A stretch of DNA of 64,000 bases from Chloroflexota bacterium (GTDB lineage Bacteria; Chloroflexota; UBA11872), in assembly GCA_965198185.1 (NCBI GenBank), contig CBDAOU010000002.1, positions 1,986,904 to 2,050,903 of the forward strand. Reading direction: 5' to 3'. This document shows, in pieces, positions 4,138-49,287 of the stretch; position 1 is the stretch's first letter, and every line of letters begins with the position of its first letter. The translations under genes and the position numbers were made by a program. A model generated the notes under the pieces. The model saw only the letters and a program-made list of their open reading frames with translations. It searched no databases and was not told where the DNA came from.

Positions 4138-4167
4138 AACATCCGTCGAGCTGCGAGTGCATTGCCG

Positions 4168-5136: not shown

Positions 5137-5172
5137 GGCCTGGGTCGATGCGGAGGGACGGGCGACGCTTGG

Positions 5173-6300
5173 CTAGGCCACCACCACGAGATGCGGCGGC
5201 GCCCAAATGCGCCACCCGGAGGGCGTGGGATCGAGGCCGAAGATCTGGCGCGGGGTCATGACCGGCGTGTCCGAAAACCGGGGCGCGTGCCGGTTGTGCT
5301 GGAAGATCTTGATGCCGCGCCACTCGAGCTGCGGGTACGCCGTGGGATCGGTGATGGCGTTGTACTTGTGCACCTTCGCGTTGGGGGTGCCAAACCCATC
5401 GGCGTCGAAGACCAACTCGACCTCCGGGTAGATCTCGATGTCTTGCTTGTTGGGAACCATTGACCAGGAGTCGGAGATGTCGTCGACGAACTGATGCACG
5501 ATGAGCACTTTCTTGTGCGACAGGCCCTCCTCGCGCACGTAGGCGGCCAGGGCGGCCTGGGCCTGGTTGATGCTGGCGGCGGAGAGCGTGCCGATCGGCT
5601 TGCCGGGCATGTCCTGGTCCGGCGCGGTGGCGAACTCAGGGTCCAGCGCGATATGCACGTTGGGATAGGCCAGATAGCCGGCGTCGATCATCCGCTGCAC
5701 GAAATAGGTCGGCTGCAGGCGGCCGATCTGAGTGTCGAGGATCACGGCCATGTCGCGGTCCGCGGCCGGCTTGATGTAGTCCTCGATCAAGTCCACGCCA
5801 GAGGCGTCCAAGAAGATCACGCAGGAGTCGTCCGCGCTTTGGCAGGGCGTCGCCAGCCCGTAGATCAGATGCGGCGCCACCATGACGGGCGCCTCGCCGA
5901 GATCCGACATGGCGCTGGTCCACGGCGCGACGCTGCGTTCCAGCTCATCAAATGAACTCAGCGCCCCGAGCATCCCGAGCACCGGGGCCACGCCGAAACT
6001 GCGGCCGTAGACCGTGAGTACCTGGTAGGACTGCAGAACCGATTGGGGTCCTGTGGCCGCAGAAGGATCCGACCACCACTCGCACTCGGTCGGTTCAAGG
6101 TCGGCAGCCTCGCAGATGCGGTCGAGTATCGACGCCGCTGGCCGAGATCTTTCCGACTCGGCGGGAGGGCTAGGGCTGGCTGACGCGCCGTAGGGCTCAG
6201 TCGGAGCCGATGCGGCGGCAACCCTCCCCAAGAGTGTGCCTGCCGCGCCTCCCGACAGCAGCCCCAGGCCGTGCCTGAGGAACGACCGTCGCCCGTACAT
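5173..6300 (-). CDS. Secreted hypothetical protein with a Tat/Sec-type signal (RRSFLRHGLGLL...). Possibly a hydrolase.
   Basis: Long ORF with a twin-arginine signal and good codon structure. No motif recognised. Confidence 0.55.
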   Translation of the reverse strand: MYGRRSFLRHGLGLLSGGAAGTLLGRVAAASAPTEPYGASASPSPPAESERSRPAASILDRICEAADLEPTECEWWSDPSAATGPQSVLQSYQVLTVYGRSFGVAPVLGMLGALSSFDELERSVAPWTSAMSDLGEAPVMVAPHLIYGLATPCQSADDSCVIFLDASGVDLIEDYIKPAADRDMAVILDTQIGRLQPTYFVQRMIDAGYLAYPNVHIALDPEFATAPDQDMPGKPIGTLSAASINQAQAALAAYVREEGLSHKKVLIVHQFVDDISDSWSMVPNKQDIEIYPEVELVFDADGFGTPNAKVHKYNAITDPTAYPQLEWRGIKIFQHNRHAPRFSDTPVMTPRQIFGLDPTPSGWRIWAPPHLVVVA

Positions 6301-9320: not shown

Positions 9321-9366
9321 TCCCCTCCACCCCTGTAACACCAGACTACGCCAGGAAAGGCGCCGG

Positions 9367-9561
9367 TCACTGCTTGTCGGGCGGCGGTCCTTCAGGCGGC
9401 TCCCGAAAGAGGAGGCGAAAGATATAGGCCAGCCAGGCCAGCGAAACCAAGATCACGGGCGGAACCAGGACCGCCAGCAGCAGGCCGGCGTCGACCGTCG
9501 CGCCGCCGGCGTCGGGCGCGCTGCCGGCCGGGCCGGCGCACGTGGCGCCCATCAGCGCCAT
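9367..9561 (-). CDS. Putative small membrane protein, about 64 aa with one or two TM segments.
   Basis: Hydrophobic C-terminus LLLAVLVPPVILVSLAWLAYIFRLLF. Start uncertain. Confidence 0.25.
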   Translation of the reverse strand: MALMGATCAGPAGSAPDAGGATVDAGLLLAVLVPPVILVSLAWLAYIFRLLFREPPEGPPPDKQ

Positions 9562-9640
9562 GAGCAGAAGCGTGGCAAGCGCGGCGGTTCGCAACCGGCC
9601 ACTCGCGGTGGATCCCCGCAGCCGGGAGGGACCTGACACG

Positions 9641-10138
9641 CTAAGGCTGCGCCGGTCCGGCCAGCCGCGCCAGCAGATCGGCGAGACTCCGCAGCGGGCC
9701 GCGGTCCAGCGCGGCGTCGAGCGCCAGCGAGACGACGCAAACACCGAAGAGCGCCCATCCGAGCGGGTAAACGCCTACCGCTACGAATACCGCGCCGGCA
9801 AGCGCCACGGTGCCCGTCAAGGCGTCGGCGCGTTCGAACGTCAGCTGAGGCTCGGGCGCGTGTTGGCCTCGCAACGGCGCGAAGAGCCATCGGTGCAGGG
9901 CGCGCGGCGGGCTGAGGCGGGAATTCATCGACCCGGCAAGTTGGACGAGCACGCCCAGCAGCGTGAGCCACGGCGCGACCGCGGTGCTCGCCACGACGAT
10001 GCCGAGGGCATACCACGCCGCCAGTGCGCCTTGGTGGAACCGACGCTCGGCGCGGTCGCCGGCTGGGCCGCGCGTCAAGCGGTCACTCGTCCCGGTCGCG
10101 GTTCGCGGTAGCGCAGCGCCAGGCGCGCCAGTCGCAAC
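9641..10138 (-). CDS. Putative integral membrane protein. Start very uncertain.
   Basis: Only the C-terminal roughly 150 aa of the 284-aa ORF look protein-like (multi-TM: AWYALGIVVASTAVAPWLTLLGVLVQLAG...). The N-terminal part is Arg/Pro-rich and probably untranslated. Confidence 0.25.
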   Translation of the reverse strand, partial: VATGAPGAALPRTATGTSDRLTRGPAGDRAERRFHQGALAAWYALGIVVASTAVAPWLTLLGVLVQLAGSMNSRLSPPRALHRWLFAPLRGQHAPEPQLTFERADALTGTVALAGAVFVAVGVYPLGWALFGVCVVSLALDAALDRGPLRSLADLLARLAGPAQP

Positions 10139-10317
10139 ATGGCACGCTGATCGGGGCGGCGGCGGTCGGGCCTGTACAGCCGCAGGCGCCGCAACCGGAG
10201 TACGGTGAACAACAGCATGAACGCGATCTGGAAGACGCGGCGCGGCGTCGGAATCCCCGGGTCGATACTGCCGACGGGCGCGATGCGCAGGACCACTGTT
10301 GATACTCCGGCCCATGC

Positions 10318-11868
10318 GTGTTTGGATGGTCGACTCGAATGGTAGCCGGTGCCCGACGTCGCCTGACGCGAGCGGGGCCTCCAGCCGCCGTGGCAATGGC
10401 GTCGGGCGCGCTCTATGCCGCGAGCTTTCCGCCGCTCTCGTGGACGGCGTTGGGCTTTGTTGCCTGGGTGCCGCTGATGCTGGCGGTGCACGCACCCGCC
10501 CGCTCGAATGCGGCGGCGCGGGTGCTGGCGGGACTCGGTTGCGGCACGCTCTTCGGTCTTCTCGCGCTGAGCATCGATCCGCCGGAAGTAGTCACCGGTC
10601 CCACATGGGTTGGGGTGAGCGTGGCGGTCGCCGCGGCGTTTGGCCTCGCGGCGGGGCTGCTGGCCGTGCCGGTGCTGACGCCGCGCCTGCATGCGGCGCT
10701 GCGTGGCTGGGGGATCGTGTGGCTGCCGGCCCTGGTGTGGGCGGGCATCGAGTACCTGCGGCTGGTGACCACGGCGGGCCATCAGTGGGGCATGACCGCC
10801 ACCGCGCAGATCGACGTCGCGCCGCTGCGGGCGTTCCTGCCGCTGGCTGGCATGTGGCCGGTGCCGATCGTCGTGATGGCCACCAACGGCGCCATCGTGG
10901 CGCTCATTCTGGCCGCGCGGGGCCGGTGGATCGGGTCGCGGCCGGCCCTGGGCTGGACCGTGGGCGCGGTGGCGGCGGCCTGGATCCTCGGCGGAATTCT
11001 TGCGCTGCTGCCGCCGCCGGCCGCAACCGGCACGCTGCGCGCGGCCGTGGTGCAGCCGGGCGAGCACGTGCCGGATCACCCCCTCACGCGACCGCTCATC
11101 GTGCGCCGCCAATACGCCGAACTCACCGAGGTCATTACGGCGCTGCACGCGCCGCCAACCGCCGCGGCAAAGGGCGCCCAACTGGTGGTGTGGCCGGAGG
11201 CCTCGGGCTGGGTCGATCCGCTGACGCCGACCGGACAGGCCCTGGCCCAGCAGGTGGCCGACGTGGCGGTGCGGTCGGACACGACGATCGTGTGGCCCTA
11301 TTTCATGCGCATCGACGGCGATCGCACGCGCAACGAAGCCGTGCTTGTCTATCCCGATAGGCGGCTCTCGGCCCCCACGACCAAGGCGCATCCGGTTTGG
11401 GTGATCGGTGAGCGCAGCATCACTGCCGACCTGCACCCCGTCTACGCGGTCGACGGAGTGACCCTGGGGCTGGCGCTGGGGCCGGATGGCAGCTACACGG
11501 ACGCCCTGGCGCGGCTGGCCCGGGACGGCGCCCAGGTCGTGGCGGTGCCCACGCACGACTGGGCCGCCTATGCCGGCACGCAGCTGGCGCACCTGCGCGT
11601 GCGGGCGGCCGAGCACCGCGTGGCGATTGTCAAAGCCGACTGGCGCTACGGCTCGGCGATCGTCGCTCCCGATGGAAGCATCGTCGCGGCAACGCCCGTC
11701 GCCACTCCGCTGGAAACCATGCTGGTGGCAGACGTGGCGGTTATGACGCCGGGCACTCCCTATAGCGCCAGCGGTGACTGGCTGGGGGTTGTGAGCCTTG
11801 TCACTGCCGTGGGGGCGGTTGCGGCCGCCGTCGTGACGGGGCGCCTGGGCCGCCGGCGTTCGAGCTAG
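10318..11868 (+). CDS. lnt: Apolipoprotein N-acyltransferase-like protein: N-terminal polytopic domain plus C-terminal carbon-nitrogen hydrolase fold.
   Basis: N-terminal 6-TM region followed by nitrilase-superfamily motifs (VVWPEASGW and the TKAHPV lysine region). No Cys is present in the C-terminal domain (see findings). Confidence 0.65.
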   Translation: MFGWSTRMVAGARRRLTRAGPPAAVAMASGALYAASFPPLSWTALGFVAWVPLMLAVHAPARSNAAARVLAGLGCGTLFGLLALSIDPPEVVTGPTWVGVSVAVAAAFGLAAGLLAVPVLTPRLHAALRGWGIVWLPALVWAGIEYLRLVTTAGHQWGMTATAQIDVAPLRAFLPLAGMWPVPIVVMATNGAIVALILAARGRWIGSRPALGWTVGAVAAAWILGGILALLPPPAATGTLRAAVVQPGEHVPDHPLTRPLIVRRQYAELTEVITALHAPPTAAAKGAQLVVWPEASGWVDPLTPTGQALAQQVADVAVRSDTTIVWPYFMRIDGDRTRNEAVLVYPDRRLSAPTTKAHPVWVIGERSITADLHPVYAVDGVTLGLALGPDGSYTDALARLARDGAQVVAVPTHDWAAYAGTQLAHLRVRAAEHRVAIVKADWRYGSAIVAPDGSIVAATPVATPLETMLVADVAVMTPGTPYSASGDWLGVVSLVTAVGAVAAAVVTGRLGRRRSS

Positions 11869-17597: not shown

Positions 17598-18240
17598 GTC
17601 CCGCCCGCGCCCAAGCTCTGCGCGGTCGTGCTGGCGGCCGGGCGCTCCGAGCGCTTCGGCTCACCCAAGCCGCTAATCCGCTGGGGCAACGTCTCGCTGA
17701 TCGCGCACCAGGTGCGGACGCTCGCGGGCCTCGCAGAGGTGGCTGAAGTGTTTGTCGTCACGGGCCATCGCGCCGACGAGGTGCGCGCGGCGCTGGACGG
17801 CCTACCCGCGCGCACCGTGCACAATCCCGACTACGCGCGCGGCCGCGCCACGTCCGTCGCCTGCGCCGCCCGCGCTATGCCCGAGAACTGCGACCGGAAT
17901 CCTGCTGGCCAGCGTCGACCAGCCGCTGCACCCGGGAGCTCTGGCCGACCTGATCGCCAGTTGGCGCGCTGCGCCCCACGACATCGTCAGGCCGCTGCAC
18001 GAGGGCCAGCACGGTCATCCGGTCATCTTCCCCGGCGATCTGCGCGCCGAGCTGACCGCCGTGGACGACGCCACCGAAGGCCCCCGCGCCGTGGTCCGCC
18101 GCCACGCCGAGCGCCTGCGCGACGCGCCCACCGCCCATCCCCACGTCCTCCTGAACCTGAACACCCGCGCGGCCTACGCCGACGCCCTGGCCGCGTTCGA
18201 CCTGCCCGACTCCGACGCGCCGCCCGACAGCGGGGCATAA
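17598..18240 (+). pseudogene. mocA: MobA-like NTP-transferase (molybdenum-cofactor cytidylyltransferase MocA-like) with a +1 frameshift near 17892-17897. It may be a pseudogene or a sequencing error.
   Basis: Frame A reads CAVVLAAGRSERFGSPKPLI...VHNPDYARGRATSVACAARAMPEN. Frame B continues GILLASVDQPLHPGALADLIASW...GHPVIFPGDL and stops at 18240. The join matches the MocA order (NPDYAQG...GDMP). The start codon is not identifiable. Confidence 0.6.
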
Positions 18241-18251
18241 TGTCGGCCCCG

Positions 18252-18327
18252 GGGCCCATAGCTCAGCTGGAAGAGCGCCTCAATGGCATTGAGGAGGTCG
18301 TCGGTTCAAGTCCGACTGGGTCCACCA
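18252..18327 (+). tRNA. tRNA-Ala (anticodon GGC).
   Basis: Cloverleaf read by hand. Acceptor GGGCCCA pairs with TGGGTCC and carries the G3:U70 Ala identity pair. U8, D-arm GCTC/GAGC, anticodon stem CCTCA/TGAGG, loop AT-GGC-AT, T-arm GTCGG-TTCAAGT-CCGAC, discriminator A, encoded CCA. Confidence 0.9.
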
Positions 18328-18344
18328 TTCGCAGGGTTTTGACC

Positions 18345-18818
18345 TTGACGGCACCAGTTATTGCGCACCGCAACGACTGCATTTACCTAGTCGCTTGCGT
18401 CAAGAAGAAGCGTTCGAAACCAGCAAAGGCGAAGGACCTCTACGAGTCGTCTTTGTTCGTCAAGTCGCGTGCCTATGTCGAGAAGACGGGACGGTCATGG
18501 TTCATTCTGTCCGCCAAGCACGGTCTCGTTCATCCTGAGACGGTCGTTTGCCCCTACGATCGCGCGCTGAACAATATGCGCATCAACGCACGGCGAGCGT
18601 GGGCACGGCAGGTCCTCAGCCAACTTGAACCGCATCTCGACGGAGTCAGCTCCGTCGTATTCCTGGCCGGCGAGCGATATCGGGAGCACCTGAAACCCAA
18701 TATTCGAGCGCGGGGTATCAATGTAATCGTGCCCATGAAGGGACTTCGCATCGGAGAAATGCTTGGTTGGCTGACCGAGAAGTGTCGAGACCACCCGGGC
18801 CAAGGTCAACCGCTGTAG
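18345..18818 (+). CDS. Small conserved hypothetical protein (about 157 aa) with the N-terminal motif IYLVAC-VKKKR and ...WFILSAKHGL...PYD... It lies in a low-GC islet. TTG start (18339 or 18345).
   Basis: Frame continues from the tRNA 3' end. GC content drops sharply relative to the flanks. Protein-like α/β pattern. The family is not confidently named. Confidence 0.5.
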   Translation: MTAPVIAHRNDCIYLVACVKKKRSKPAKAKDLYESSLFVKSRAYVEKTGRSWFILSAKHGLVHPETVVCPYDRALNNMRINARRAWARQVLSQLEPHLDGVSSVVFLAGERYREHLKPNIRARGINVIVPMKGLRIGEMLGWLTEKCRDHPGQGQPL

Positions 18819-19576
18819 AGCGATCCTTGAGACACCCCACAGGCAGGGCAAACGACGTCGCTAGGTTCTATGCCCTGGTCGACCGCCTGGAGGCCGGCGT
18901 TGGCGGCACCCGGGTGCTGGCCGACTGCAACGGCAAGCTTAACTGGCCGCGGCGGGGCGTCTACTTCTTCTTTGAGGATGGGGAGATTCGCTCGCGGTCT
19001 GGTGCCGGACTCCGGGTGGTGCGCGTCGGCACTCACGCGTTGAAACGCCGCGCCCGGACCACAATCTGGGGGCGGCTCTCGCAGCATCGCGGCGTAGCGC
19101 GGACCGGCGGCGGGAATCACCGTGGATCAATCTTCCGCCTGCTCGTGGGCAAGGCGCTGGCTCACCGGGGGGACCTTCCCCTGCCGCAGTCGTGGGGCGT
19201 TAAGGGTGACCTCGGCGCGGCGGCACGACGATTCGGTGTGGACCGCCCTGCAGGCAAGCAAGACGAGTCTGCGTTGGAGGTGCTTGTCAGCAAGCACATC
19301 GGCGCCATGCCGTTCCTTTGGCTCAATGTGGACGACGCGCCCGGGCCTGACAGCCAGCGCGCCGCAATCGAGCGACACGCCATTGCCCTGCTTAGCGGCG
19401 GGGATGACGGCGGATCATCCCTCGACCCGCCGTCGGACGGCTGGCTCGGACGCTTCAGCGACCGCGATCTCGTGCGCCGCTCCGGCCTCTGGAACAACCG
19501 CCATGTCGGGGAGCGCTATGACCCTTCCTTCCTTGATGTGTTGGCCGAGCAGGTTGACGCAACTGAGCCTCCCTAG
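18767..19576 (+). CDS. GIY-YIG nuclease-family protein with a C-terminal domain of unknown function. Overlaps the upstream gene by 52 nt.
   Basis: WPRRGVYFFFEDGE ... RVVRVGTHAL ... TTIWGRLSQHRG ... RGSIFRLLVG fits the GIY...YIG...R...H/E core. ATG at 18767 is the only start that keeps the conserved FYALVDRL N-terminus. Confidence 0.6.
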   Translation: MADREVSRPPGPRSTAVERSLRHPTGRANDVARFYALVDRLEAGVGGTRVLADCNGKLNWPRRGVYFFFEDGEIRSRSGAGLRVVRVGTHALKRRARTTIWGRLSQHRGVARTGGGNHRGSIFRLLVGKALAHRGDLPLPQSWGVKGDLGAAARRFGVDRPAGKQDESALEVLVSKHIGAMPFLWLNVDDAPGPDSQRAAIERHAIALLSGGDDGGSSLDPPSDGWLGRFSDRDLVRRSGLWNNRHVGERYDPSFLDVLAEQVDATEPP

Positions 19577-21162: not shown

Positions 21163-21193
21163 CCCTTCGACAGGCTCAGGGCGAACGGGCGAG
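21163..21193. repeat. Dispersed REP-like element CCCTTCGACAGGCTCAGGGCGAACGG between convergent mutM and rqcH.
   Basis: Shares a 26/27-nt core with 45949-45975 and the GCTCA...CGAACGG core with the 27162 array. Confidence 0.6.
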
Positions 21194-30057: not shown

Positions 30058-31668
30058 TTGCCGTCGCGTGTCTCGTGTCCACTCTCTAGCGGGCGGGCAA
30101 CTATAAGTCGCAAGGGCGACGGGAAGCCTCGAGCGCGCTTGGCCAATGCGCGCGCGGCTCGCGACGCCGCGCGCGGCACGGTCCCGAGGCTGCAATCCTT
30201 ACGGTGGCGCTTGGCGTGGACGGCGCTGCTGGCACTCGTTCTGACGTTTGCCTGGGCATGCGCCCCGTCGGATGTCACGAGACCGCCGGGCGTGACGCCT
30301 GTGGCGGTTGCGACGCCGATCGAGACCCCGCCGGCGGCTCCAACAACCCAACCGGCGGCCGAGACGCAACCACCAGCGAGCCCGCCGGTGGAAGCTTCAC
30401 GTACTGCCGCGGCTGAACAGAAGCCCGCCACGGCGACGCCCACCGTGCCCGCGCCCACGGCTACGCCGACCCCGGCAATCACCCAACAGCCCACGTTACA
30501 GGTGGCACCCGAACTCGCGGGGCTGCTGGCGGACATGGGCCCGAAGGTGGCCGCCTGGCGCGGACTCGAACCGTGGGATGTCCCAGCGTCGCTGATGACG
30601 CCGGAAGAGTTCAAGGTGTGGCTAGCCGCCGAGTTCGAGGAGGAGTATCCGGCGGATGAGGTCGCGGCCGATCAACTGGAGTGGGAGCTTCTGGGTCTGA
30701 TTCGGCCAGAGCAGAGCCTCTACGAACTGCAATTGGCGCTCTATGGCGAGCAAGTTGCGGGGTTCTACGACTCAGAGGCAGAGGAGATCGTCCTGATCGG
30801 CGACCACGATGCAGCGGCCCCGATGCTCGTCGTGACGCTCGCGCACGAATACGTGCATGCGCTGCAGGACCGGGCGTTCGATCTGGACGCGATCGAGGAC
30901 AGCGTCGAAGACAATCAAGATGCGTTGCTGGCATTGCGAGCGCTTGTCGAAGGCGACGCGACGTTGGCCGGCATGCAGTACGCCGAGCAGGCAGTGCGGC
31001 AAGGGGAACTCACCAGGCCGGAGTCGGTCGGACAGCCGCCCGACAACGCGCTCTCCAAGGTGCCGCCGGCTTTGCTGGAGACCTTGATCTTTCCCTACGT
31101 GGAGGGCCTGGCGTACGTGGCGGCGCTGCTTCGCGACGGTTGGCAGGCGGTCGACGCCGCCTACACCAGATTGCCAGCGTCAACCGAGCAGGTATTGCAT
31201 CCGGAGAAGTACGCCGCGAACGAGGCACCGCTGGATGTTGACCTGCCATCGATGATTGATCAACTGCCGCCGGGCTGGAGCGAGGTGCGGCGCGACGTCT
31301 TTGGTGAATTCATGGTCAGCGTGTTGCTCGGGGGCAGGAATTTCTCGGCATCGGCCACGAGCGCGGCTGCAGGGTGGGGTGGCGATGCCTATGCGCTCTA
31401 TCGGAACGAGCATGGCCAGGGGCTATTGGCAATGAAGTTTCGGTGGGATACGGAGCGCGACCGCGACGAATTCTGGACGGCGATAGTCGACCACCTTGTT
31501 GGCGGCGGCCTGGGATCGGGCGTGTCGGAGGTGGATGCCACGACGGCGGCTTGGAGGGGAGACGGGCGCACGGCACACGCGCAGCTTCTGTCGGATTCCG
31601 TGCTGGTGATCATCGGACACGACGCCGCAGTGGTTCGTCTGGCCGCGAATTTCCTCTCGCGCGGCTAG
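30058..31668 (+). CDS. Lipoprotein with a Pro/Thr/Ala-rich linker and a HExxH (AHEYVHALQD) putative zinc-metallopeptidase domain. True start is probably TTG near 30211.
   Basis: Lipobox-like LTFAWAC followed by a low-complexity linker and a globular C-terminal domain with HExxH. Confidence 0.55.
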   Translation: MPSRVSCPLSSGRATISRKGDGKPRARLANARAARDAARGTVPRLQSLRWRLAWTALLALVLTFAWACAPSDVTRPPGVTPVAVATPIETPPAAPTTQPAAETQPPASPPVEASRTAAAEQKPATATPTVPAPTATPTPAITQQPTLQVAPELAGLLADMGPKVAAWRGLEPWDVPASLMTPEEFKVWLAAEFEEEYPADEVAADQLEWELLGLIRPEQSLYELQLALYGEQVAGFYDSEAEEIVLIGDHDAAAPMLVVTLAHEYVHALQDRAFDLDAIEDSVEDNQDALLALRALVEGDATLAGMQYAEQAVRQGELTRPESVGQPPDNALSKVPPALLETLIFPYVEGLAYVAALLRDGWQAVDAAYTRLPASTEQVLHPEKYAANEAPLDVDLPSMIDQLPPGWSEVRRDVFGEFMVSVLLGGRNFSASATSAAAGWGGDAYALYRNEHGQGLLAMKFRWDTERDRDEFWTAIVDHLVGGGLGSGVSEVDATTAAWRGDGRTAHAQLLSDSVLVIIGHDAAVVRLAANFLSRG

Positions 31669-42885: not shown

Positions 42886-43788
42886 ATGAGATTGCTCGTT
42901 GGCACCCGTGACGGTCTGCGAGACAGCGAGGGCGCGCTGCTGGCTCTTGGCGGACGGTCGATCCGCGCGCTGGCCGGGAATCCAGACAACGCATGGATGG
43001 TTGTCGACGGGCGCGAGGTCTGGCGGCTGCGAGACGGGCGGTCAACCCAAGCCACCACTGCCGCATCGCCGGGCGATCCCGCGCTCACGTGCGCCGTGCC
43101 CACGCCCACGGGCGTTCTTCTTGGAACCGAGGGGGCGCATCTCCGACAGTTGGACGACGCAGGGCTGGTGCCGGTTGCGGGCTTCGATCAGGCCGAGGGC
43201 CGCGAGCACTGGTTCACGCCCTGGGGCGGCCCGCCGGCGACCCGGTCCATCGTGATGGACGAGGAAAGCACGCTCTACGTCAACGTGCACGTTGGCGGCG
43301 TGCTGCGGTCGGACGACGACGCCGAGACCTGGCAGGCGACGGCGCTGGACATCCGCGCCGACGCGCACCAGGTCATCGCGCCCCCCGGTCACGACGGCCT
43401 GCTGCTGGCCGCCACGGCGCGTGGGCTGGCCATTTCGCGTGACCGTGGGGATTCATGGAACATGGACGCCCGCGGACTGCACGCCACCTATGCCCGGGCC
43501 GTCGCCCTCAGTGATTCGACGATTCTGCTGTCGGTCGCGCGCGGACCCGGCGGACAGGATGCGGCCTTGTATCGACGCGCACTGGACGGCGACGAGCCGT
43601 TCGTCCGCTGCACGGACGGGCTGCCCGATCACTTCGACGGCAACATCGACTCTCACGGGCTGGTGGCCGACGGGCCCAACGCGGCCATGGCAGGACCCGA
43701 CGGCGCGCTCTATTGCTCGGAGGACGGCGGGCGTACCTGGCATTGCACGCTCACGGGACTGTCCGCGGTTTATGCGCTGGTGATGTAG
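42886..43788 (+). CDS. BNR/Asp-box beta-propeller protein (Ycf48-like).
   Basis: Asp-box-like SRDRGDSW and SEDGGRTW, with propeller-like periodicity. Confidence 0.55.
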   Translation: MRLLVGTRDGLRDSEGALLALGGRSIRALAGNPDNAWMVVDGREVWRLRDGRSTQATTAASPGDPALTCAVPTPTGVLLGTEGAHLRQLDDAGLVPVAGFDQAEGREHWFTPWGGPPATRSIVMDEESTLYVNVHVGGVLRSDDDAETWQATALDIRADAHQVIAPPGHDGLLLAATARGLAISRDRGDSWNMDARGLHATYARAVALSDSTILLSVARGPGGQDAALYRRALDGDEPFVRCTDGLPDHFDGNIDSHGLVADGPNAAMAGPDGALYCSEDGGRTWHCTLTGLSAVYALVM

Positions 43789-43995
43789 CGAGATTTCACC
43801 TAACCGCAGAAGCGCCTTCTCACGGTCGACGCGGTCGCAACGCCACTAACATTCTCAGCACCATTCCACTCGCTCCCTAGGTGGCCACTCCCCAATCCAA
43901 TCCCTGAGCCTCGACCTGGAGATCGAGACGCGCTCGTTGTGTCCCGCTAATGCGCACCGTTTAGAATATGTGACGATTAGTGGAAAGCCAGCCTC

Positions 43996-44970
43996 ATGGA
44001 CCCAACAACCTGCGCTGCGGTTACCACCGCCCTCGACATCGCGATAGCACGGGTGGCAAAGCAGGAACTCACAAGACTCAGCACCGGATTGAGCGACCGG
44101 TGCCGCGCCAGACGCGTTTACACTTCCCTTCGTGAATTAGCTGGCCTACAGGGCAACACCAAGCCTACTTATGATGAGTGGGTTGCCGTGTTCTATTCTC
44201 TCTGGTATCAGCCAGCTCACATTAATCTCGCGTATACCTGCGCCCAACGCATACCGGCAGACATCAATCCTATCGTGAGAGGCGAAGGTGCCTTGCAGGT
44301 CTTCGATTTCGGCTGCGGCGCTCTAGCGACGAAATTCGGTCTCGCGTTGGCGGCGGCTGACGCATTGCGTGAAGGTTCACAACTCCAAACAATCACTGTT
44401 CAGTCGTGCGATGAAAGCGAGGCTATGAAAGACATTGGCAAGAAGATTTGGTGTGACTTTGTGAACGAGATAGAGCCTGTTGCCAACACGGATCCTAAGG
44501 TTGCTGCAGTATGGTTTGCGTGCGAATCGATTGTATTCGATGGGCAAGTCGATTCTCAGGAGTCGACTCGTTGGCTTACTGCCCTTCATGTAGCCTACGC
44601 AACAAATGCACATGAGGTGAAGGCATGCCTTAATCGTAGAGTCAAATTCTGGGCGCCTGATGTAGTCTTAGTTACCTCTCACCCATCGTTTACTCACCAT
44701 AGGTTTTGCCCGCAATGTGGTTACTGTTGTTGTTGGGACGAGACTTTCAAATGTTCACCAGGACCGTATACCCCTGATGTGGAGCGTCTTAGGCTGGAAG
44801 GTATGCTTTCTAATACCAGTAAATTGAGATTGCAAATAGGCGAGTGTATTAGCAATAGCTTACAAGATTGCGAGAGATCCTTCGTATCTCGTTACCTGCA
44901 AACGCGGGCGGTGCATTGGACCGGGGGGACAGACCTTGGGGCAGTTGTGTATGTCAAACAGCCGAACTGA
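43996..44970 (+). CDS. Hypothetical protein in a low-GC islet. It has a Rossmann methyltransferase-like motif I (VFDFGCGALA), a degenerate amino-MTase-like motif IV (DVVLVTSHPSF) and a C-terminal Cys cluster (FCPQCGYCCCWDETFKCSPGP).
   Basis: GC content is about 45-50% against flanks near 70%. Motif-based inference only. Confidence 0.5.
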   Translation: MDPTTCAAVTTALDIAIARVAKQELTRLSTGLSDRCRARRVYTSLRELAGLQGNTKPTYDEWVAVFYSLWYQPAHINLAYTCAQRIPADINPIVRGEGALQVFDFGCGALATKFGLALAAADALREGSQLQTITVQSCDESEAMKDIGKKIWCDFVNEIEPVANTDPKVAAVWFACESIVFDGQVDSQESTRWLTALHVAYATNAHEVKACLNRRVKFWAPDVVLVTSHPSFTHHRFCPQCGYCCCWDETFKCSPGPYTPDVERLRLEGMLSNTSKLRLQIGECISNSLQDCERSFVSRYLQTRAVHWTGGTDLGAVVYVKQPN

Positions 44971-45859
44971 TCTTCCGAGAACCGGCCGTCCCAAGGTTGT
45001 CCGTGAAACGGCCCGCGAGATTCTGACGCGCGCCACCGGCTTCATGGACGCCTACGATTTCACCCTGAATCCGTATAGCGGCTGCGCGTTTGGGTGCACC
45101 TACTGCTACGCGGCGTTCTTCAGCACGACCAAGGAGCAGCGTGAGAATTGGGGCCGCTGGGTCACGGTCAAGCAGAACGCCGTCGACTTGCTGGAGCGGC
45201 GCAAGCCCGGGTATCTCGACGGCAAGCGCATCTACATGAGCAGCGTCACCGACCCGTATCAGCCAATCGAGCGCAAGCTGAAGCTGACCCGCGGCCTGCT
45301 TGCCATCATGGCGGAGCGGCACAAGCCCAAGCTGGTGATTCAAACCCGCAGCCCCGATGTCGTGCGCGACTGCGATCTGTTCACGCAGATCGAGACAGAC
45401 GACCGCGACCTTTTTAGGAAGGTCACAAAGCATGGCGGTCGGGTGCAGGTGAACATGACCGTCACCACCGACGACGAGGACGTGCGGCGCACGTTCGAGC
45501 CCTCATGCCCGTCCAATGCCCACCGGCTGCGTGCTATCGCCCAAGTGCAGGCCGCCGAGATTGACGCCTGCATCACGCTGACGCCGCTGATCTGGGTCAA
45601 TGATCCCAAGGCCTTTGCCCAAAGTCTGCTGGACACTGAGGTCAAGAAATTCATCATCCAGCCGTTCCACTTTCAGCGCGGCAAATTTGTCGCCGGCACA
45701 CGTGACGACGCGATTCGGCTGATGGCTGAGAAGCTGAACTGCAACCTGGGCTCATTCCGTGAGCGGTACGAAGAGCACTATGCGACGGTCCACCGGGTTC
45801 TCAAGGATGCGCTGCCGGAGTTGGGCGAGGGCAAAGACGGGTTCAAGCCTCCGTTCTGA
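44936..45859 (+). CDS. Radical SAM enzyme, SplB-like (COG1533 'DNA repair photolyase'/spore-photoproduct-lyase family). Alternative start at 44951.
   Basis: NPYSGCAFGCTYCYA matches the CX3CX2C cluster preceded by NPY, as in the SplB family. It overlaps the upstream gene by 20-35 nt, which suggests coupling. Confidence 0.65.
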   Translation: MGQLCMSNSRTDLPRTGRPKVVRETAREILTRATGFMDAYDFTLNPYSGCAFGCTYCYAAFFSTTKEQRENWGRWVTVKQNAVDLLERRKPGYLDGKRIYMSSVTDPYQPIERKLKLTRGLLAIMAERHKPKLVIQTRSPDVVRDCDLFTQIETDDRDLFRKVTKHGGRVQVNMTVTTDDEDVRRTFEPSCPSNAHRLRAIAQVQAAEIDACITLTPLIWVNDPKAFAQSLLDTEVKKFIIQPFHFQRGKFVAGTRDDAIRLMAEKLNCNLGSFRERYEEHYATVHRVLKDALPELGEGKDGFKPPF

Positions 45860-45948
45860 CCGTCGTTCCGCCCCTTGCGCTGCCGGCGCTAGGAAATCTC
45901 TGAACAAGGAGGGGGCTCTGGCGTGCATGCGCCCCAATCCGTTCTACA

Positions 45949-45995
45949 GCCCCTTCGACAAGCTCAGGGCGAACGGATCGGGGCGCGGCTTACGA
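45949..45995. repeat. Dispersed REP-like element CCCTTCGACAAGCTCAGGGCGAACGGATCGGGGCGCGG.
   Basis: Core is nearly identical to 21163-21193 and related to the 27162 tandem unit. Confidence 0.6.
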
Positions 45996-46070
45996 GTTTA
46001 TTCAGAGCTTTCCTAGATATACATCCGATGAGCGAGCGCCGCACGCGGGCACCCCGGACGCTTGGGGCAC

Positions 46071-46091
46071 GGGCGGGTCTTAGACCCGCCC
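46071..46091. terminator. Hairpin GGGCGGGTC-TTA-GACCCGCCC between convergent genes.
   Basis: Perfect 9-bp inverted repeat. Confidence 0.45.
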
Positions 46092-46113
46092 CTACGGGCT
46101 ATGCGGAGGTCTC

Positions 46114-49100
46114 CTACGCGCGGAAACGCCTGATGACTGTAGCCGCGGCCGGGAGGGCGTAGCGCTTTCCGGGGCCGAGCGCGGCGGGTGACTGCGGTGG
46201 GCCGGCGCGCCGTGCCGACACTCCGGCAAAGATGCGGAGCTCGTTGCGCCGCCGGGTGTGGGCGGTGCCGACGTGGGCCATTCCGATCTGGCGTCCGTTG
46301 GCGATTCGCGTGGCGCTGGTGACGGTTCCGATCCAGGCGCCGCGTCGATCCGTGACGGGATCGCCCTGGCGCGCCATGGGCACCCGCTCGTCGGCTATCG
46401 AGAAGCGCACGATGGCCGACTCGCGTTCCGCCTCGCGCCGCACGTAGGGATCGCGCCCGACGAAGAACGGCTTGTAGGCCTTGACGAAGCGCCCGAATCC
46501 GGCGTCGCCCGGCGTGAGGTCCAGCGGCCCGGCAAGCTCATGCCCGTAGAGTGGGAACCCGGCCTCGGTGCGGGTGGAGTCGCGCGCTCCGAGCCCTACC
46601 GGCACGACGCCGTCGTCGGCGCCCGCTTCGAGGATCGCGTCCCACACGGCGCGGGCCACCTCGGGGTGCACGAAAACCTCGAAGCCGATCGCTTCGCCCG
46701 TGTAGCCCGTGTGGGCAATCTCAACGTCGGCGCCGGCGAGCGTGAAGGCGCGCACGTGGTTCATGCGCATGGCGTCGAGGGCGCGCCGCTCCTCGTCCGT
46801 GGCGACGATCCGTTGCAGGACCCGGCGCGAGTGCGGCCCCTGGAACGCCAGATCGAGCCGCGCTGCGTCGCCCGCCGACCGGCTGTTGAGGTCCACGAGA
46901 TCAGCGCGAACCGGAAGCCGCGCCGCGCCGTCGCACGAAACGACCTGATAGGCGCCGTCGTTCACGCCCGTCAGCCAGGCCCAATTCTTGGGCGCGTTGG
47001 CCGCGTTGACCACCGCCATGAATCGCTCGCGGGCCAGGCGGTAGATGATGAGGTCGTCGAGGCAGTTGCCGTCGGCGTCGAGCAGATAGGTGTAGGCTGC
47101 ACGTCCCACCGGCAGGCGAGTGGCGCTGCCGGTGACGACGAGGTCCAGGAACTCGGCGGCGGCGGGTCCGGAGACGGCGAAAGCCCCCATGTGCCCCACG
47201 TCGAACAGCCCGGCCGTCTTCCGCACCGCCTGGTGCTCCGCCGCAATGCTCGTGTACCAGACCGGCATGTCCCAGCCCGCGAAGGGGACCAGCTTCTTCG
47301 CTTGCTCGGCGTGGAACGCGTGGAGCGGCGTGCGCCTCAGCTCGTTCGACTCGGGCTCGCGCCATTCGAACGGCTGGGGGCCGTCGCTGCCGACGGGAAC
47401 CGAGCGCCGGCCCACGAACCAGGGACGCGACGCGTCGTCGGCAGGCGCCTCGGGCAACGGCGCGCCGGTGGGCCCGAGGCTTGCCAGGGCGTCCGTCACC
47501 GGCGGTGCATCGCCGTCAGCCACGGTCACCGAGACCGGGCCGCTGAGCTTCCGGCTGGGCTCGTCGGGGTCGACGATTACGTAGCCGTCGGACGCCGCCT
47601 GAAGCCAGTCGGCCAGCTCATCGGCGCGGTTGGGGTCGACGACGATCAAGGCGGAAGCCTCGTCTGCTTCGGCGGGTCGGACCACCGTTGCGCTAACTGG
47701 GTCGCTGCCGGGAGAACCCGCCAGGGCCACTCGGCGCGCCTGCCCCGGCTCGAGATCGCGCACGCGCCGGTTGGCAACCTCGTCCAGGAACTGCAGCGCC
47801 CGAGCGCCGCGAACGAGCAGCAGGCCGGAAGTGCAGGCCGGAGGGTCGGCGGGCGGCGGTCCCTCGGCGTGTCCGCGACGGGCGAAATCGAGCACCTCGG
47901 AGCGCAGCGACCGCATGGCGTCGTAGGCCATGCGGCCACGGTAGCGCGGGGTCCTGCGGCCGCTGTAGGCCACGCCGTGCATGGCGCGAAACGCGCGCGC
48001 CAAGATGCCGGCCAGCGTCTTCATATCGTCCGTGCCGTAGCCGCGCTGGGTTAGCCAGGGCGTGCCCATCCGAATGCCGGTGGGCGCGGCGAAGCCGCGG
48101 TCGCCGGGCACGGAGTTGCGGTTGGCCACCACGCCCAGGGCGTCCAGCATGCGCACGGCCGGCTCGCCGCGCAGATCGCCGGCGGCTCCGACGCGGCGCA
48201 GATTCACCACGAACAGATGGGTGTCGGTGCCGCCGTAGGCCACGCCCACGCCTTCCGCCTCCAGGGCGTCGACGAGCGCCCTCGCATTGGCCGTGATCTG
48301 TCGCTGGGTGCGGTGGAACGCCTCGGTGGCCGCGAGCTTGAACATGACCGCCATGGCCGCGATCTTGTTGAGGTGCGGGCCGCCCTGCTCGCCGGGAAAC
48401 ACGGAGCGATCGACCGAGCGCATCAGGTCGCGCCGGTGCGACAGGATCACCGCGCCGCGCGGGCCGAACAGCGTCTTGTGCGTGGTGAACGTCACGACAT
48501 CGGCGATGCCCACGGGCGAGGGGTAAGCGCCCGCGACGACGAGCCCCGCCGGATGTGAGATGTCGGCCATCAGCAGCGCGCCCACGTCGTCGGCGATGGC
48601 GCGGAAGCGCTCCCAGTCGGGCGCCCACGGATACGAGGTGTATCCGGCGATGATCAGCCGGGGCCGGGCGGCCTTGGCCCGCGCGGCAATGTCGTCGTAG
48701 TCGAGCTGCGCGTCCGGGCCCGGAATGCGGTAGCTGGTCGATTTGAACCGGCGTCCCGACCGGTTCACGGATGCGCCGTGGCTCAAGTGCCCGCCGTGGG
48801 CCAGGGCCAGCCCCATGATGGTGTCGTCGGGCTCGAGCAGGGCCTCCTCGACGGCGTTATTGGCCGCCGCGCCCGAGAGCGGCTGCACGTTGACCCACAA
48901 GGCGTCGGCCGCCACGCGGTCGTTGGCAAAGAGGTCCGCGCAGCGGCGCTGCGCCAGGGCTTCTACCAGGTTGCTGAACTCGTTGCCGCGGTAGTAGCGG
49001 CGATCGCCGTAGCGCCGGGTGCGGGCAAGCTGCCGGTCGAGGTCCGCCAGCGCCGCCTCCTGGTCGCGGATCATCGCGGCCGCCGCATAGCCCTCGGCGT

Positions 49101-49287
49101 AGATGCTGGTGAACGGCGACGCCAGCGCGTCCCGCACCGGCTTGGGCGTGAGGCTCTCGGACGGGATGAGGATGAGCTTGTCGCGCTGGCGTGCGTGCTC
49201 GCGCTCGATGAGGTCGGCCACCAGCGGGTCAACGTCGGAAACGGGGCGGTCGAGCGCGAGGTCGGCGTAGGTCGGGTCGAGGGACAT
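46114..49287 (-). CDS. glyA-gcvT: Fusion protein: N-terminal serine hydroxymethyltransferase-like PLP domain, a roughly 200-aa middle region, and a C-terminal glycine-cleavage T-protein (aminomethyltransferase, GcvT) domain.
   Basis: SHMT motifs (LIPSESLTPKP...; FTTHKTLFGPRG with the PLP lysine). GcvT motifs (RTPLHAFHAEQAKKLVPFAGWDMPVWY, FDVGHMG). Single uninterrupted 1057-aa frame. Confidence 0.75.
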   Translation of the reverse strand: MSLDPTYADLALDRPVSDVDPLVADLIEREHARQRDKLILIPSESLTPKPVRDALASPFTSIYAEGYAAAAMIRDQEAALADLDRQLARTRRYGDRRYYRGNEFSNLVEALAQRRCADLFANDRVAADALWVNVQPLSGAAANNAVEEALLEPDDTIMGLALAHGGHLSHGASVNRSGRRFKSTSYRIPGPDAQLDYDDIAARAKAARPRLIIAGYTSYPWAPDWERFRAIADDVGALLMADISHPAGLVVAGAYPSPVGIADVVTFTTHKTLFGPRGAVILSHRRDLMRSVDRSVFPGEQGGPHLNKIAAMAVMFKLAATEAFHRTQRQITANARALVDALEAEGVGVAYGGTDTHLFVVNLRRVGAAGDLRGEPAVRMLDALGVVANRNSVPGDRGFAAPTGIRMGTPWLTQRGYGTDDMKTLAGILARAFRAMHGVAYSGRRTPRYRGRMAYDAMRSLRSEVLDFARRGHAEGPPPADPPACTSGLLLVRGARALQFLDEVANRRVRDLEPGQARRVALAGSPGSDPVSATVVRPAEADEASALIVVDPNRADELADWLQAASDGYVIVDPDEPSRKLSGPVSVTVADGDAPPVTDALASLGPTGAPLPEAPADDASRPWFVGRRSVPVGSDGPQPFEWREPESNELRRTPLHAFHAEQAKKLVPFAGWDMPVWYTSIAAEHQAVRKTAGLFDVGHMGAFAVSGPAAAEFLDLVVTGSATRLPVGRAAYTYLLDADGNCLDDLIIYRLARERFMAVVNAANAPKNWAWLTGVNDGAYQVVSCDGAARLPVRADLVDLNSRSAGDAARLDLAFQGPHSRRVLQRIVATDEERRALDAMRMNHVRAFTLAGADVEIAHTGYTGEAIGFEVFVHPEVARAVWDAILEAGADDGVVPVGLGARDSTRTEAGFPLYGHELAGPLDLTPGDAGFGRFVKAYKPFFVGRDPYVRREAERESAIVRFSIADERVPMARQGDPVTDRRGAWIGTVTSATRIANGRQIGMAHVGTAHTRRRNELRIFAGVSARRAGPPQSPAALGPGKRYALPAAATVIRRFRA

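Follow-up and report, generated by a model that had tools for sequence, protein, structure and literature searches.

A variable slot of about 2.3 kb in a Chloroflexota chromosome holds an insert of two overlapping genes. It lies within a stretch of 64,000 nucleotides that was analysed as a whole and is referred to here as the window; the features of the slot are collected in Table 1. Its edges were set at the stop codon of the BNR/Ycf48-like gene and at the stop codon of the convergent SHMT-GcvT gene. The overlap between the genes is 35 nt if gene 2 starts at its TTG and 20 nt if it starts at its ATG, so the ORF coordinates bear out the overlap of 20-35 nt that was given in the preliminary description of this DNA.

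Table 1. Features of the variable slot and its flanks (positions in the window).
Feature	Position	Strand	Remarks
Core flank: 300-aa BNR/Asp-box (Ycf48-like) protein	42886..43788	+	anchor for empty-site test
Variable slot (insert)	43789..46113		2325 nt, GC 0.571 vs flank 0.689
Left scar: decayed duplicate of empty-site spacer and SHMT-GcvT 3' end	43789..43845	+	alignment with relatives
-10-like hexamer TAGAAT, 28 nt upstream of gene 1 start	43962..43967	+	presumed cassette promoter
Gene 1, 324 aa, class-I SAM-methyltransferase fold, METTL17/Rsm22-like architecture	43996..44970	+	
Gene 2, 302 aa (ATG), SplB/COG1533-group radical SAM, C45-x3-C49-x2-C52	44951..45859	+	alternative TTG start 44936
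REP-like element CCCTTCGACAAGCTCAGGGCGAACGGATCGG	45951..45981	+	second copy at 21163; 0.01 copies expected by chance
Perfect 9-bp hairpin, 22 nt 3' of minus-strand SHMT-GcvT stop	46071..46091	-	
Core flank: 1057-aa SHMT-GcvT fusion gene, convergent with cassette	46114..49287	-	ORF call

The islet does lie between core genes, as had been noticed, and the synteny is conserved in relatives: homologues of the BNR flank are 79-92% identical, the order TyrRS-Tag-BNR-slot-SHMT/GcvT is kept, and three of the relatives (L142, L146 and L147) have this 1057-aa gene too, with its SHMT and GCV_T domains. The left scar can be aligned to L146's empty site, to the genuine SHMT-GcvT 3' end (46105-46196) and to the slot's left edge in L142, L144 and L145, at a mean column identity of 76%. 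Apart from this decayed target duplication, the cassette contains neither terminal inverted or direct repeats nor an integrase, and no known RNA element was found in the slot. The REP-like repeat and the hairpin said to follow the islet are both real, but they are parts of the insertion site's host-side scaffold and lie outside the cassette proper. L144 and L147, whose cargo is different, have the REP-like element at the slot's right edge as well; it is part of the hotspot scaffold. The hairpin is likely to be the terminator or a stabiliser of the SHMT-GcvT gene: the 74 nt around it fold with -36.6 kcal/mol (z = -2.05), and it is not followed by a U-tract and was not called in a terminator scan.

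When the same slot was compared in six syntenic relatives (L142 to L147), it was found to be empty or to hold other cargo. Only 11 nt separate the flanks in L146; L143 carries the Shedu protein SduA (E = 1.8e-88), L147 carries GmrSD, L142 and L144 carry DUF4062+NACHT-like (STAND-like) proteins, two in all, and L145 carries an NsnB/AriA-like ATPase. The locus is thus a variable site among conserved core genes with known defence systems in relatives, which is the operational definition of a defence island or hotspot. Because the slot in close relatives holds known anti-phage genes or nothing, the insert is a strong candidate for a DNA-targeting system of immunity or conflict that has not been described before. 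In these uncultured Chloroflexota the site itself is a compact defence hotspot, for which one empty-site reference and five alternative cargos are documented. Hotspot location amounts to guilt by association, and we counted it against the defence reading for that reason.

The base composition of the insert is unusual. The GC content of gene 1 is 0.515, falling to 0.45 in 300-nt windows, and that of gene 2 is 0.608, while 900-nt windows elsewhere in the 64 kb have a mean of 0.689 (sd 0.022, minimum 0.617). The resulting z-scores of -7.9 and -3.7 are well outside gene-to-gene variation, and third codon positions show the same profile, with a GC3 of 0.52 in gene 1, 0.80 in gene 2 and 0.81-0.89 in the neighbours. 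These GC and codon-usage data confirm the existence of a low-GC two-gene islet between flanks of about 70%. The accompanying claim, that the islet was acquired horizontally, is upheld by the empty or variable slot in relatives; low GC is not simply a mark of recent acquisition here. In each of 57 loci the GC content of gene 1 is below that of its flanks, and in each of 58 its GC3 is below that of gene 2, so low GC is a trait of the gene 1 family, and this family-wide dip rules out recent transfer as its sole cause.

Gene 1 was described as having no recognisable family and this remains so after searches of the protein against Pfam, NCBIfam and PADLOC, of 41 family members against Pfam and of a profile against PDB sequences; its best match in PADLOC-DB v2.0.0 has an E-value of only 0.048. 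Neither Pfam nor NCBIfam has a model for its family, which comprises about 700 clusters. A lead to the TcmP/DUF5131 'three-Cys partner' was dropped because gene 1 has no NCBIfam match of any kind. The structure model, which is of high confidence, predicts a class-I SAM methyltransferase fold with METTL17/Rsm22 as the closest relatives, in agreement with the methyltransferase-like character first read from SAM motif I. Gene 1 shows the features that define the class-I (Rossmann-fold) SAM-dependent methyltransferase superfamily, namely a seven-stranded Rossmann-like sheet, a D/E-x-G-x-G motif I after beta-1 and an acidic residue at the end of beta-2. The motifs quoted earlier were located at residues 102-111 (VFDFGCGALA), 135-140 (VQSCDE), 222-232 (DVVLVTSHPSF) and 239-255 (the Cys cluster); NPYSGCAFGCTYC, quoted with them, was verified as present. 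The SAM-binding core is intact and invariant: residues D104, G106, G108, D139, S141 and M144 are retained in 37 helicase-fused homologues, as are the lid residues Y59, Y67, W70, Y71 and N77, and also R278, with motif I reading DFGCGALA in gene 1 and the canonical DLGAGTG in those homologues.

Two details of the earlier reading of gene 1 need changing. The segment DVVLVTSHPSF, which had been likened to motif IV of amino-methyltransferases, is placed at strand beta-5 and not after beta-4, where the motif IV position is occupied by H198-x-x-Y201. DNA amino-methyltransferases (N6-A or N4-C) are recognised by (D/N/S)-P-P-(Y/F) directly after beta-4 together with a target-recognition domain, and gene 1 lacks the DNA-methyltransferase motif IV. 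The C-terminal Cys cluster is present as described, but not as a metal-binding feature of the family: the loop that holds it contains no Cys in the closest relative (63% identity), is hypervariable and has a low pLDDT, and the cluster is private to this single protein. Gene 1 is the fast-evolving, AT-rich partner of the pair, and its hypervariable loop spans approximately residues 232-270. Its nearest structural relatives, METTL17 and Rsm22, bind rRNA and not DNA, a point that was counted against the defence reading, as was the missing motif IV.

Gene 2 is the strongly conserved partner. It belongs to the radical SAM superfamily, scoring above the gathering threshold of the Pfam model PF04055 (CxxxCxxC motif for the 4Fe-4S cluster and SAM, partial TIM-barrel core), and its identification as an SplB-like enzyme with that motif agrees with our finding that the closest solved structure is spore photoproduct lyase (SPL), ahead of RlmN/Cfr. 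The structure model of gene 2 is moderate only (pLDDT 75), and this was counted against our main explanation. Its best NCBIfam matches are the PA0069 and Rv2578c families, both in COG1533, and both fall short: 118.9 bits against a cut-off of 360 for NF033668 (the PA0069 family), over residues 17-220 only, and 74 bits against 430 for Rv2578c. TIGR04470 (radical SAM mobile pair protein B) is reached with 88.2 bits against 410, and the pairing differs too, the partner of gene 2 being a methyltransferase-fold protein and not radical-SAM pair protein A. The best matches of gene 2 in PADLOC-DB v2.0.0 are weak (PDC-M41B, 0.0024; pVip, 0.0057), and neither gene corresponds to an anti-phage system in that catalogue. 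With PADLOC, Pfam and NCBIfam all giving no system match, the module is as unrecognised as it first appeared.

The pairing of the two genes is strict. A homologue of gene 2 lies directly downstream of gene 1, in the same orientation, in 57 of 57 genome loci, which answers the question of co-occurrence raised at the outset; the same adjacency is seen in locus L058 and after both WD40 fusions. Genes 1 and 2 are the only genes common to all 58 loci, no conserved third gene was found in either the two-gene or the helicase-fused module type, and one locus (L055) has a tandem duplication of the cassette. The genes surrounding the cassette differ in every species; the commonest neighbours in the 57 genome loci are housekeeping or metabolic genes, which we counted against the defence reading. 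Near-confinement to Chloroflexota (54 of the 57 family genomes) was counted against it as well, since it leaves some probability of a lineage-specific housekeeping role. A phage origin was rejected: no relative of gene 1 was found on IMG/VR viral contigs, and the matches of gene 2 in phage records reach only 28-36% identity. The lack of viral-contig matches was likewise weighed against the defence reading.

The -10-like hexamer upstream of gene 1 is presumed to be the promoter of the cassette; a two-hexamer promoter scan called none upstream of gene 1. Across the 58 loci, the words that recur most often upstream combine into an extended -10 motif, TGTGCTATAAT, with TGCTAT in 15 loci and TATAAT in 13. 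None of the 58 loci has a Cheo-type LexA box (GAAC-N4-GTTC, a consensus that may not be that of these uncultured Chloroflexota) within 200 nt upstream of gene 1. The cassette's own extended -10 motif and the lack of such a box were both counted in favour of the defence reading.

Relatives of the two genes are found in other arrangements. In 54 of 80 metagenome loci the radical SAM gene is followed by a fusion of a methyltransferase-like domain to a UvrD (SF1) helicase whose Walker A, DExQD and V/VI motifs are intact, and in other relatives the gene-1 domain is fused to a WD40 propeller. A type III methyltransferase, HsdR (twice), PtuA and a GmrSD/SspE-like protein are neighbours of the helicase-fused form, as judged from a PADLOC scan of ten large ORFs that were picked by hand and are not a random sample; the neighbours of the WD40 form include transposases, HicB and T5orf172. 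On the conjugative plasmid pRUNSL02 of Runella slithyformis the order is HipBA, module, IS21. More distant relatives of gene 2, which stand alone, occur in AdaA-Ogt-AlkB-like operons on two Bacillales plasmids.

On balance, we favour the view that a chromosomal defence hotspot has here taken up a self-contained mobile cassette of two genes, most likely an anti-mobile-element or conflict system that acts on DNA via two SAM-dependent enzymes. Judging from its context, the cassette probably has a role in defence, and the earlier proposal of a new nucleic-acid modification or defence module is supported, as a candidate, by the fold models, the invariable pairing, the variable slot and the lack of a catalogue match. 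The cassette carries no nuclease or other obvious killing effector, and this was counted against a defence role. We infer that its substrate is DNA; alkylated or methylated bases are the substrate class suggested by the strict partner, by the helicase fusions and by the Ada-operon outgroups alike. Gene 2 may carry out radical chemistry on a DNA base that has been flipped out and is probably alkylated or methylated, because known relatives of its clade, or ones linked to it by context (SPL, the SOS-regulated SplB homologues, the Ada-operon homologues and gp53 of phage M6), repair or remodel DNA bases, and gene 1 would be the variable, target-selecting SAM-dependent component.

These activities could be combined in two ways. 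In the sub-model that we prefer, which is drawn by analogy with DarT/DarG, the genes would form a 'write/erase' pair: the methyltransferase-fold protein would install a methyl lesion or mark on DNA, with the helicase or WD40 sensor steering the fused forms, and the radical-SAM enzyme would reverse or process that mark. The alternative is an arrangement like restriction-modification, in which the methyltransferase would mark self DNA and the radical-SAM enzyme would damage DNA that is unmarked. A more specific form of the write/erase pair, which we offer tentatively and consider rather doubtful, is an immune module in which gene 1 puts replication-blocking methyl lesions on invading DNA and, if unchecked, on that of the host, and gene 2 is an oxygen-independent direct-reversal DNA dealkylase. 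If that were true, the COG1533 clade that includes the Ada-operon and SOS-regulated members would be a radical analogue of AlkB, and a large family long labelled just 'DNA repair photolyase' would gain a function. The cassette also provides a handle on the large COG1533 'SplB-like' family, which is SOS-regulated in several phyla.

The evidence for DNA chemistry can also be read as pointing to a repair module with no immune role, in which the radical-SAM enzyme would directly reverse a UV or alkylation lesion and the methyltransferase-fold partner or the helicase fusion would aid recognition or access. SPL is the closest solved structure to gene 2, whose relatives are found in operons with AdaA, Ogt and a 2OG-oxygenase and whose best NCBIfam matches, PA0069 and Rv2578c, belong to COG1533, a group with genes reported to be under LexA control (PMC4951493, PMC8565304); UvrD-type helicases, moreover, are classic repair motors. 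We nevertheless think this unlikely, given that the slot varies among close relatives and has immune genes as its alternative cargo, that the genomic context is different in every species and that the module adjoins plasmid, IS and toxin-antitoxin genes. The absence of a Cheo-type LexA box from all 58 loci argues the same way, the fast evolution and hypervariable loop of gene 1 are atypical of a repair cofactor, and a repair enzyme has no evident need of a dedicated SAM-methyltransferase-fold partner.

A purely selfish element, either an addiction cassette of the toxin-antitoxin kind or a DNA self-marking one that brings the host no benefit, or else an anti-restriction modification on mobile elements, would account for the strict pairing, the overlapping genes and the presumed promoter, for HipBA, HicB and IS elements among the neighbours and for the tandem duplication at L055. 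It is quite unlikely all the same: no integrase or transposase travels with the cassette, which is absent from IMG/VR viral contigs, and most copies are chromosomal; a cassette with an anti-restriction role should be enriched on phages and plasmids. This reading largely overlaps with the defence explanation, because many toxin-antitoxin modules have a defensive role too.

We regard as very unlikely a pair that modifies rRNA or tRNA, with an Rsm22-like methyltransferase and a radical-SAM enzyme comparable to RlmN/Cfr or the wybutosine enzymes, which might confer resistance to antibiotics or toxins; SPL ranks above RlmN/Cfr for gene 2, gene 1 has no sequence match to the Rsm22 Pfam family, the fused motor is of the UvrD/SF1 DNA-helicase type, the outgroups lie in DNA-repair operons and the alternative cargo of the slot serves DNA-directed immunity. 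A biosynthetic pair that makes a small molecule or peptide (a RiPP or a nucleotide analogue) and has no nucleic-acid target is scarcely credible, with no conserved precursor peptide, transporter or further tailoring gene, negligible scores for viperin models, and helicase fusions and DNA-repair outgroups that point to DNA.

Among known systems, SPL (SplB; PDB 4FHC) is the nearest solved fold to gene 2 at only 14% identity, and a score of 20.7 bits for the SPL equivalog TIGR04070, against a cut-off of 400, shows that gene 2 is not an SplB orthologue; SPL is also a stand-alone enzyme of spore formers that has no methyltransferase-fold partner. COG1533 genes of the PA0069/Rv2578c group are regulated by LexA in several phyla (PMC4951493, PMC8565304), which implies a role in DNA damage. 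These genes have no reported methyltransferase-fold partner, and they differ from the cassette, in whose 58 loci no Cheo-type LexA box was found upstream. The radical-SAM genes of the Ada operons (for example WP_286125477 and WP_156676127) are homologous to gene 2 over their full length (34-38% identity), have the same invariant core and give the same pattern of sub-threshold NCBIfam matches, but they stand alone beside AdaA, Ogt, a 2OG-Fe(II) oxygenase and a DNA glycosylase, have no methyltransferase-fold partner and do not conserve C186 and C207 of gene 2. The likeness of gene 1 to METTL17/Rsm22 (PF09243) is one of fold only, at 7-11% identity and with no Pfam Rsm22 match in 41 family members; those proteins are assembly factors of the mitoribosomal small subunit and operate in an rRNA and mitochondrial context. 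METTL17 possesses a set of Fe-S-binding Cys residues that has no conserved counterpart in the gene 1 family.

To our knowledge, viperins and HXS are the only radical-SAM immune systems, and their mechanism is unrelated to that of the cassette. Both pVip (the prokaryotic viperins) and HXS (PMC13128918) are antiphage systems encoded in defence islands. The products of viperins are chain-terminating nucleotides, and HXS is a maturation system for a repeat-peptide effector; an SPL-like enzyme and a methyltransferase-fold partner are absent from both, and pVip models score E = 0.006-0.14. Our literature search found no description of a defence system that combines a radical SAM enzyme with a methyltransferase or helicase. 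If the cassette is a defence or conflict system, it would bring a new enzymatic logic to prokaryotic immunity, in which an SPL-like radical SAM enzyme and a SAM-methyltransferase-fold protein act together, either alone or with a helicase.

A precedent for an SPL-fold enzyme that alters a DNA base for a purpose other than UV repair is gp53 of phage M6, an SPL-like radical-SAM isomerase that remodels a DNA-base substituent in thymidine hypermodification (PMC8989533). Unlike the cassette, it is encoded by a phage and accompanied by a kinase, a transferase and a PLP decarboxylase. No close sequence relationship with gene 2 was seen, and the hits of gene 2 in phage databases do not exceed 36% identity. 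DarT/DarG is a phage-defence system of two often overlapping genes, in which one enzyme writes a replication-blocking mark on a DNA base and its partner erases it; its proteins, an ADP-ribosyltransferase and a macrodomain, are unrelated to those of the cassette, and the analogy serves only as a hypothesis for the mechanism. The sister module, exemplified by that of Runella (WP_013931222 and WP_013931221, generically annotated), has a radical-SAM protein 52% identical to gene 2 and an N-terminal fusion domain homologous to gene 1 (hhalign 97.6%, E = 3e-12). It differs from the cassette in its reversed gene order, in the C-terminal SF1 helicase of about 500 aa on the partner, in motif I (DLGAGTG in place of DFGCGALA) and in its occurrence in other phyla and on a conjugative plasmid; like the cassette, it is a strict two-gene unit found in defence or mobile contexts.

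The methyltransferase-fold gene (gene 1) and the SplB-like radical-SAM gene that overlaps it (gene 2) travel strictly as a pair and make up a mobile unit of two genes. Pattern scanning, with a single genome taken for each species, found 57 loci; 54 belong to Chloroflexota, mostly Dehalococcoidia MAGs, and at every one of the 57 a gene 2 homologue lay directly downstream of the gene 1 relative on the same strand. The two overlapping genes are present as the preliminary description reported, and the pair is conserved together. When all open reading frames within 8 kb were clustered, only these two were common to all 58 loci; the next commonest neighbour occurred in 11, and the neighbours were mostly unrelated metabolic or housekeeping genes. 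In the reverse query, the gene 2 homologue P0138 proved to have a member of the gene 1 family upstream of it, and one Dehalococcoidia locus (L055) carries two tandem copies of the pair. Gene 2 is the better conserved partner, with 52-85% identity to the window protein versus 24-62% for gene 1 (mean pairwise identity 0.66 versus 0.32). The distance matrices of the two are moderately correlated (r = 0.55, Mantel 0/500), the same nearest neighbour is found for both genes in 11 of 57 cases, and their trees are only partly congruent.

The fall in G+C content that had been attributed to horizontal acquisition is real and large: gene 1 (0.515) and gene 2 (0.608) have z-scores of -7.9 and -3.7 against the other 900-nt windows of the 64-kb stretch (mean 0.689, sd 0.022, minimum 0.617). 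The flanks exceed gene 1 in GC at 57 of 57 loci, and the GC3 of gene 1 is below that of gene 2 in 58 of 58 (mean 0.54 versus 0.73; in the window 0.52 versus 0.80, the latter near the 0.81-0.89 of the neighbours). The anomalous composition thus characterises the whole family, and one recent transfer does not account for it. Candidate causes of the low GC3 are exchange of partners, drift towards AT during rapid evolution, and selection for low expression. The public call for gene 2 (P0114, 271 aa) begins 31 codons in and omits a segment whose residues L25, T26, T29, G30 and F31 are invariant among homologues, so the deposited annotation is probably truncated.

Gene 1 encodes a protein of the methyltransferase fold that evolves fast and retains an intact SAM site. 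It matched no Pfam or NCBIfam model, its profile found nothing among PDB sequences, and PADLOC gave one chance-level 'methyl transferase' match (E = 0.048). Single scans of 41 family members gave sporadic weak methyltransferase matches and none to Rsm22. It is nevertheless a member of a real family, which comprised 113 clusters in a word-indexed search and, in an exhaustive profile search, about 700 at 50% identity, nearly all of them stand-alone proteins of about 315 aa. Its features are motif I (D104-F-G106-C-G108), a beta-2 motif (D139-x-S141-x-x-M144), an N-terminal aromatic lid (Y59, Y67, W70, Y71, N77), the post-beta-4 residues W193, H198 and Y201, and R278. All the motifs quoted in the preliminary description were found, but two of its readings fail. 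The segment DVVLVTSHPSF, likened to motif IV, maps to strand beta-5 in the model and so lies outside the motif IV position; the Cys cluster (residues 239-255), taken as a sign of metal binding, sits in a gap-rich, hypervariable, low-pLDDT loop and is missing in the closest relative (L001, 63% identity). At the same loop (columns ~255-285 of alignment A3), the family members P0002 and P0003 have a four-Cys insert of another kind (C-x4-C-x8-C-x4-C). These inserts and the private six-Cys cluster of the window may be independently acquired small metal-binding knuckles.

Elsewhere the gene 1 domain forms fusions with a DNA helicase or with a WD40 sensor. A metagenome scan with the gene 2 alignment gave 80 loci at 40-66% identity; three have the arrangement of the window, and in 54 the gene directly after the radical-SAM gene is an ORF about 825 aa long. 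In 48 loci the first ~320 residues of this downstream ORF match the gene 1 HMM (E 1e-5 to 1e-20), and the C-terminal half of the ~825-aa ORF is a UvrD-type SF1 helicase that retains Walker A, DExQD and motifs V/VI. The SAM-binding residues, lid residues and R278 are kept across 37 fused sequences, a pattern that points to a functional SAM-dependent enzyme. No conserved third gene was found in this sister module. It is widespread (L067-L138): metagenomes from freshwater, soil and marine habitats contain it, as does a conjugative plasmid, and its annotations read only 'radical SAM protein' and 'UvrD-helicase domain-containing protein'. On that plasmid, pRUNSL02 of Runella slithyformis, it has a HipBA module on one side and an IS21 element on the other; its radical-SAM protein shares 52% identity with gene 2, and the N-terminal domain of the fusion aligns with the gene 1 profile (hhalign 97.6%, E = 3e-12) and bears a motif I of canonical form (DLGAGTG). 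In two relatives a WD40 propeller is fused to the gene 1 domain with the radical-SAM gene next, and transposases, HicB and T5orf172 lie nearby. Of ten hand-picked large ORFs adjoining sister modules, eight had good PADLOC matches: a type III methylase, two HsdR proteins, PtuA, a GmrSD/SspE-like protein, NsnB/AriA-like ATPases and, as the one weaker match of the eight, a ZorD/DpdE-like helicase.

Positions and contents of the cassette, its insertion slot and related loci
Feature	Position	Strand	Description
Gene 1	43996-44970	+	324 aa
Gene 2	44951-45859	+	ATG start, 302 aa, overlap 20 nt; alternative TTG start 44936, overlap 35 nt
Segment omitted from P0114	44951-45043
Window slot	43789-46113
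Left-edge duplicate	43789 to ~43845		decayed copy of spacer and SHMT/GcvT 3' end
REP-like element CCCTTCGACAAGCTCAGGGCGAACGGATCGG	45951-45981; 21163-21181		2 in window, 0.01 expected by chance
SHMT-GcvT gene	46114-49287	-	single gene, 1057 aa
Weaker GC dip	18201-19100		0.617 (mean 0.689)
Weaker GC dip	30601-31500		0.629 (mean 0.689)
L146 slot			empty; 11 nt between convergent stop codons
L143 slot			full-length Shedu SduA (PADLOC E = 1.8e-88)
L147 slot			GmrSD
L142 slot protein	9191-11842		~890-aa protein, weak DUF4062 and NACHT/P-loop matches
L144 slot protein	3377-6085		~890-aa protein, weak DUF4062 and NACHT/P-loop matches
L145 slot			NsnB/AriA-like ATPase remnant
Tandem pairs, L055	10001-14283
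Sister module, pRUNSL02 (L141)	8156-11469
S. saprophyticus plasmid (L148)	4275-7884		2OG-Fe(II) oxygenase, radical SAM, DNA glycosylase, Ada-domain protein, Ogt
Bacillus sp. DX3.1 plasmid (L150)	510-4798		AdaA, Ogt, 2OG-Fe(II) oxygenase, radical SAM; AlkD-like gene beside

Known immune genes also use the slot that the cassette occupies. Homologues of the upstream BNR-repeat gene share 79-92% identity with it, and the order TyrRS - Tag - BNR - slot - SHMT/GcvT - Mo-oxidoreductase is kept in six homologue loci, with the slot empty in L146 and holding other cargo in L142, L143, L144, L145 and L147. PADLOC did not recognise the L142 and L144 proteins, which may be uncatalogued STAND-type immune proteins. 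The left-edge duplicate recurs in L142, L144 and L145, and in L145 the right edge carries a decayed duplicate of the BNR gene 3' end. Such bracketing may reflect recombination at the ends of genes by which cargo is inserted or exchanged, in an islet without an integrase. The REP-like element and hairpin described as following the cassette are both present and lie on the host side of the slot, the hairpin just beyond the stop of the SHMT-GcvT gene; the REP-like element is also found at the right edge in L144 and L147, whose cargo differs. Its reverse-strand translation, PELVEGH, ends ORFs in other Chloroflexota loci such as L041, and the full-length SHMT-GcvT fusion is found in L142, L146 and L147. 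No Rfam family matched in the slot, and no gene 1 relatives were found on viral contigs.

Gene 2 is a conserved SPL-like radical-SAM enzyme, and its relatives offer clues to a substrate. COG1533 SplB-like genes are reported to be under LexA control in several phyla (PMC4951493, PMC8565304), and phage M6 reportedly has an SPL-like radical-SAM enzyme that isomerises a thymidine substituent in DNA (PMC8989533). No Cheo-type LexA box was found upstream of gene 1 in 58 loci, where the most frequent words form an extended -10 motif, TGTGCTATAAT. Plasmid records hold stand-alone gene 2 relatives (32-41% identity) that keep its invariant core and share its pattern of sub-threshold family matches, and two of the four plasmid contexts examined are Ada-type alkylation-repair clusters. 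Such operons, with Ada, Ogt, AlkB-like and glycosylase genes, suggest that COG1533-type radical-SAM proteins are an uncharacterised component of the adaptive response to DNA alkylation. The gene 2 enzyme probably processes an alkylated or methylated base.

We infer that the cassette acts on DNA and serves defence or conflict. Our preferred model is a write/erase logic: the methyltransferase-fold effector would write a modification, which the radical-SAM enzyme would erase. Such a logic would explain why the two genes are strictly paired and overlap, why toxin-antitoxin and defence genes lie near them and why sensors are fused to the gene 1 domain. Less securely, it would explain the poor codon composition of gene 1 as a means of keeping a dangerous enzyme scarce. 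Less favoured alternatives are an R-M-like logic, plain DNA repair, RNA modification and selfish addiction. As for novelty, gene 1 and the two-gene system went unrecognised by PADLOC v2, Pfam (2025) and NCBIfam (2026), and literature searches returned no description of the system; the radical-SAM antiphage systems that they did return were viperins and HXS only. At its most novel, though with low probability, the cassette would have a categorically new mechanism. Both proteins come from known superfamilies, and their genomic behaviour is that of a defence-island cassette.
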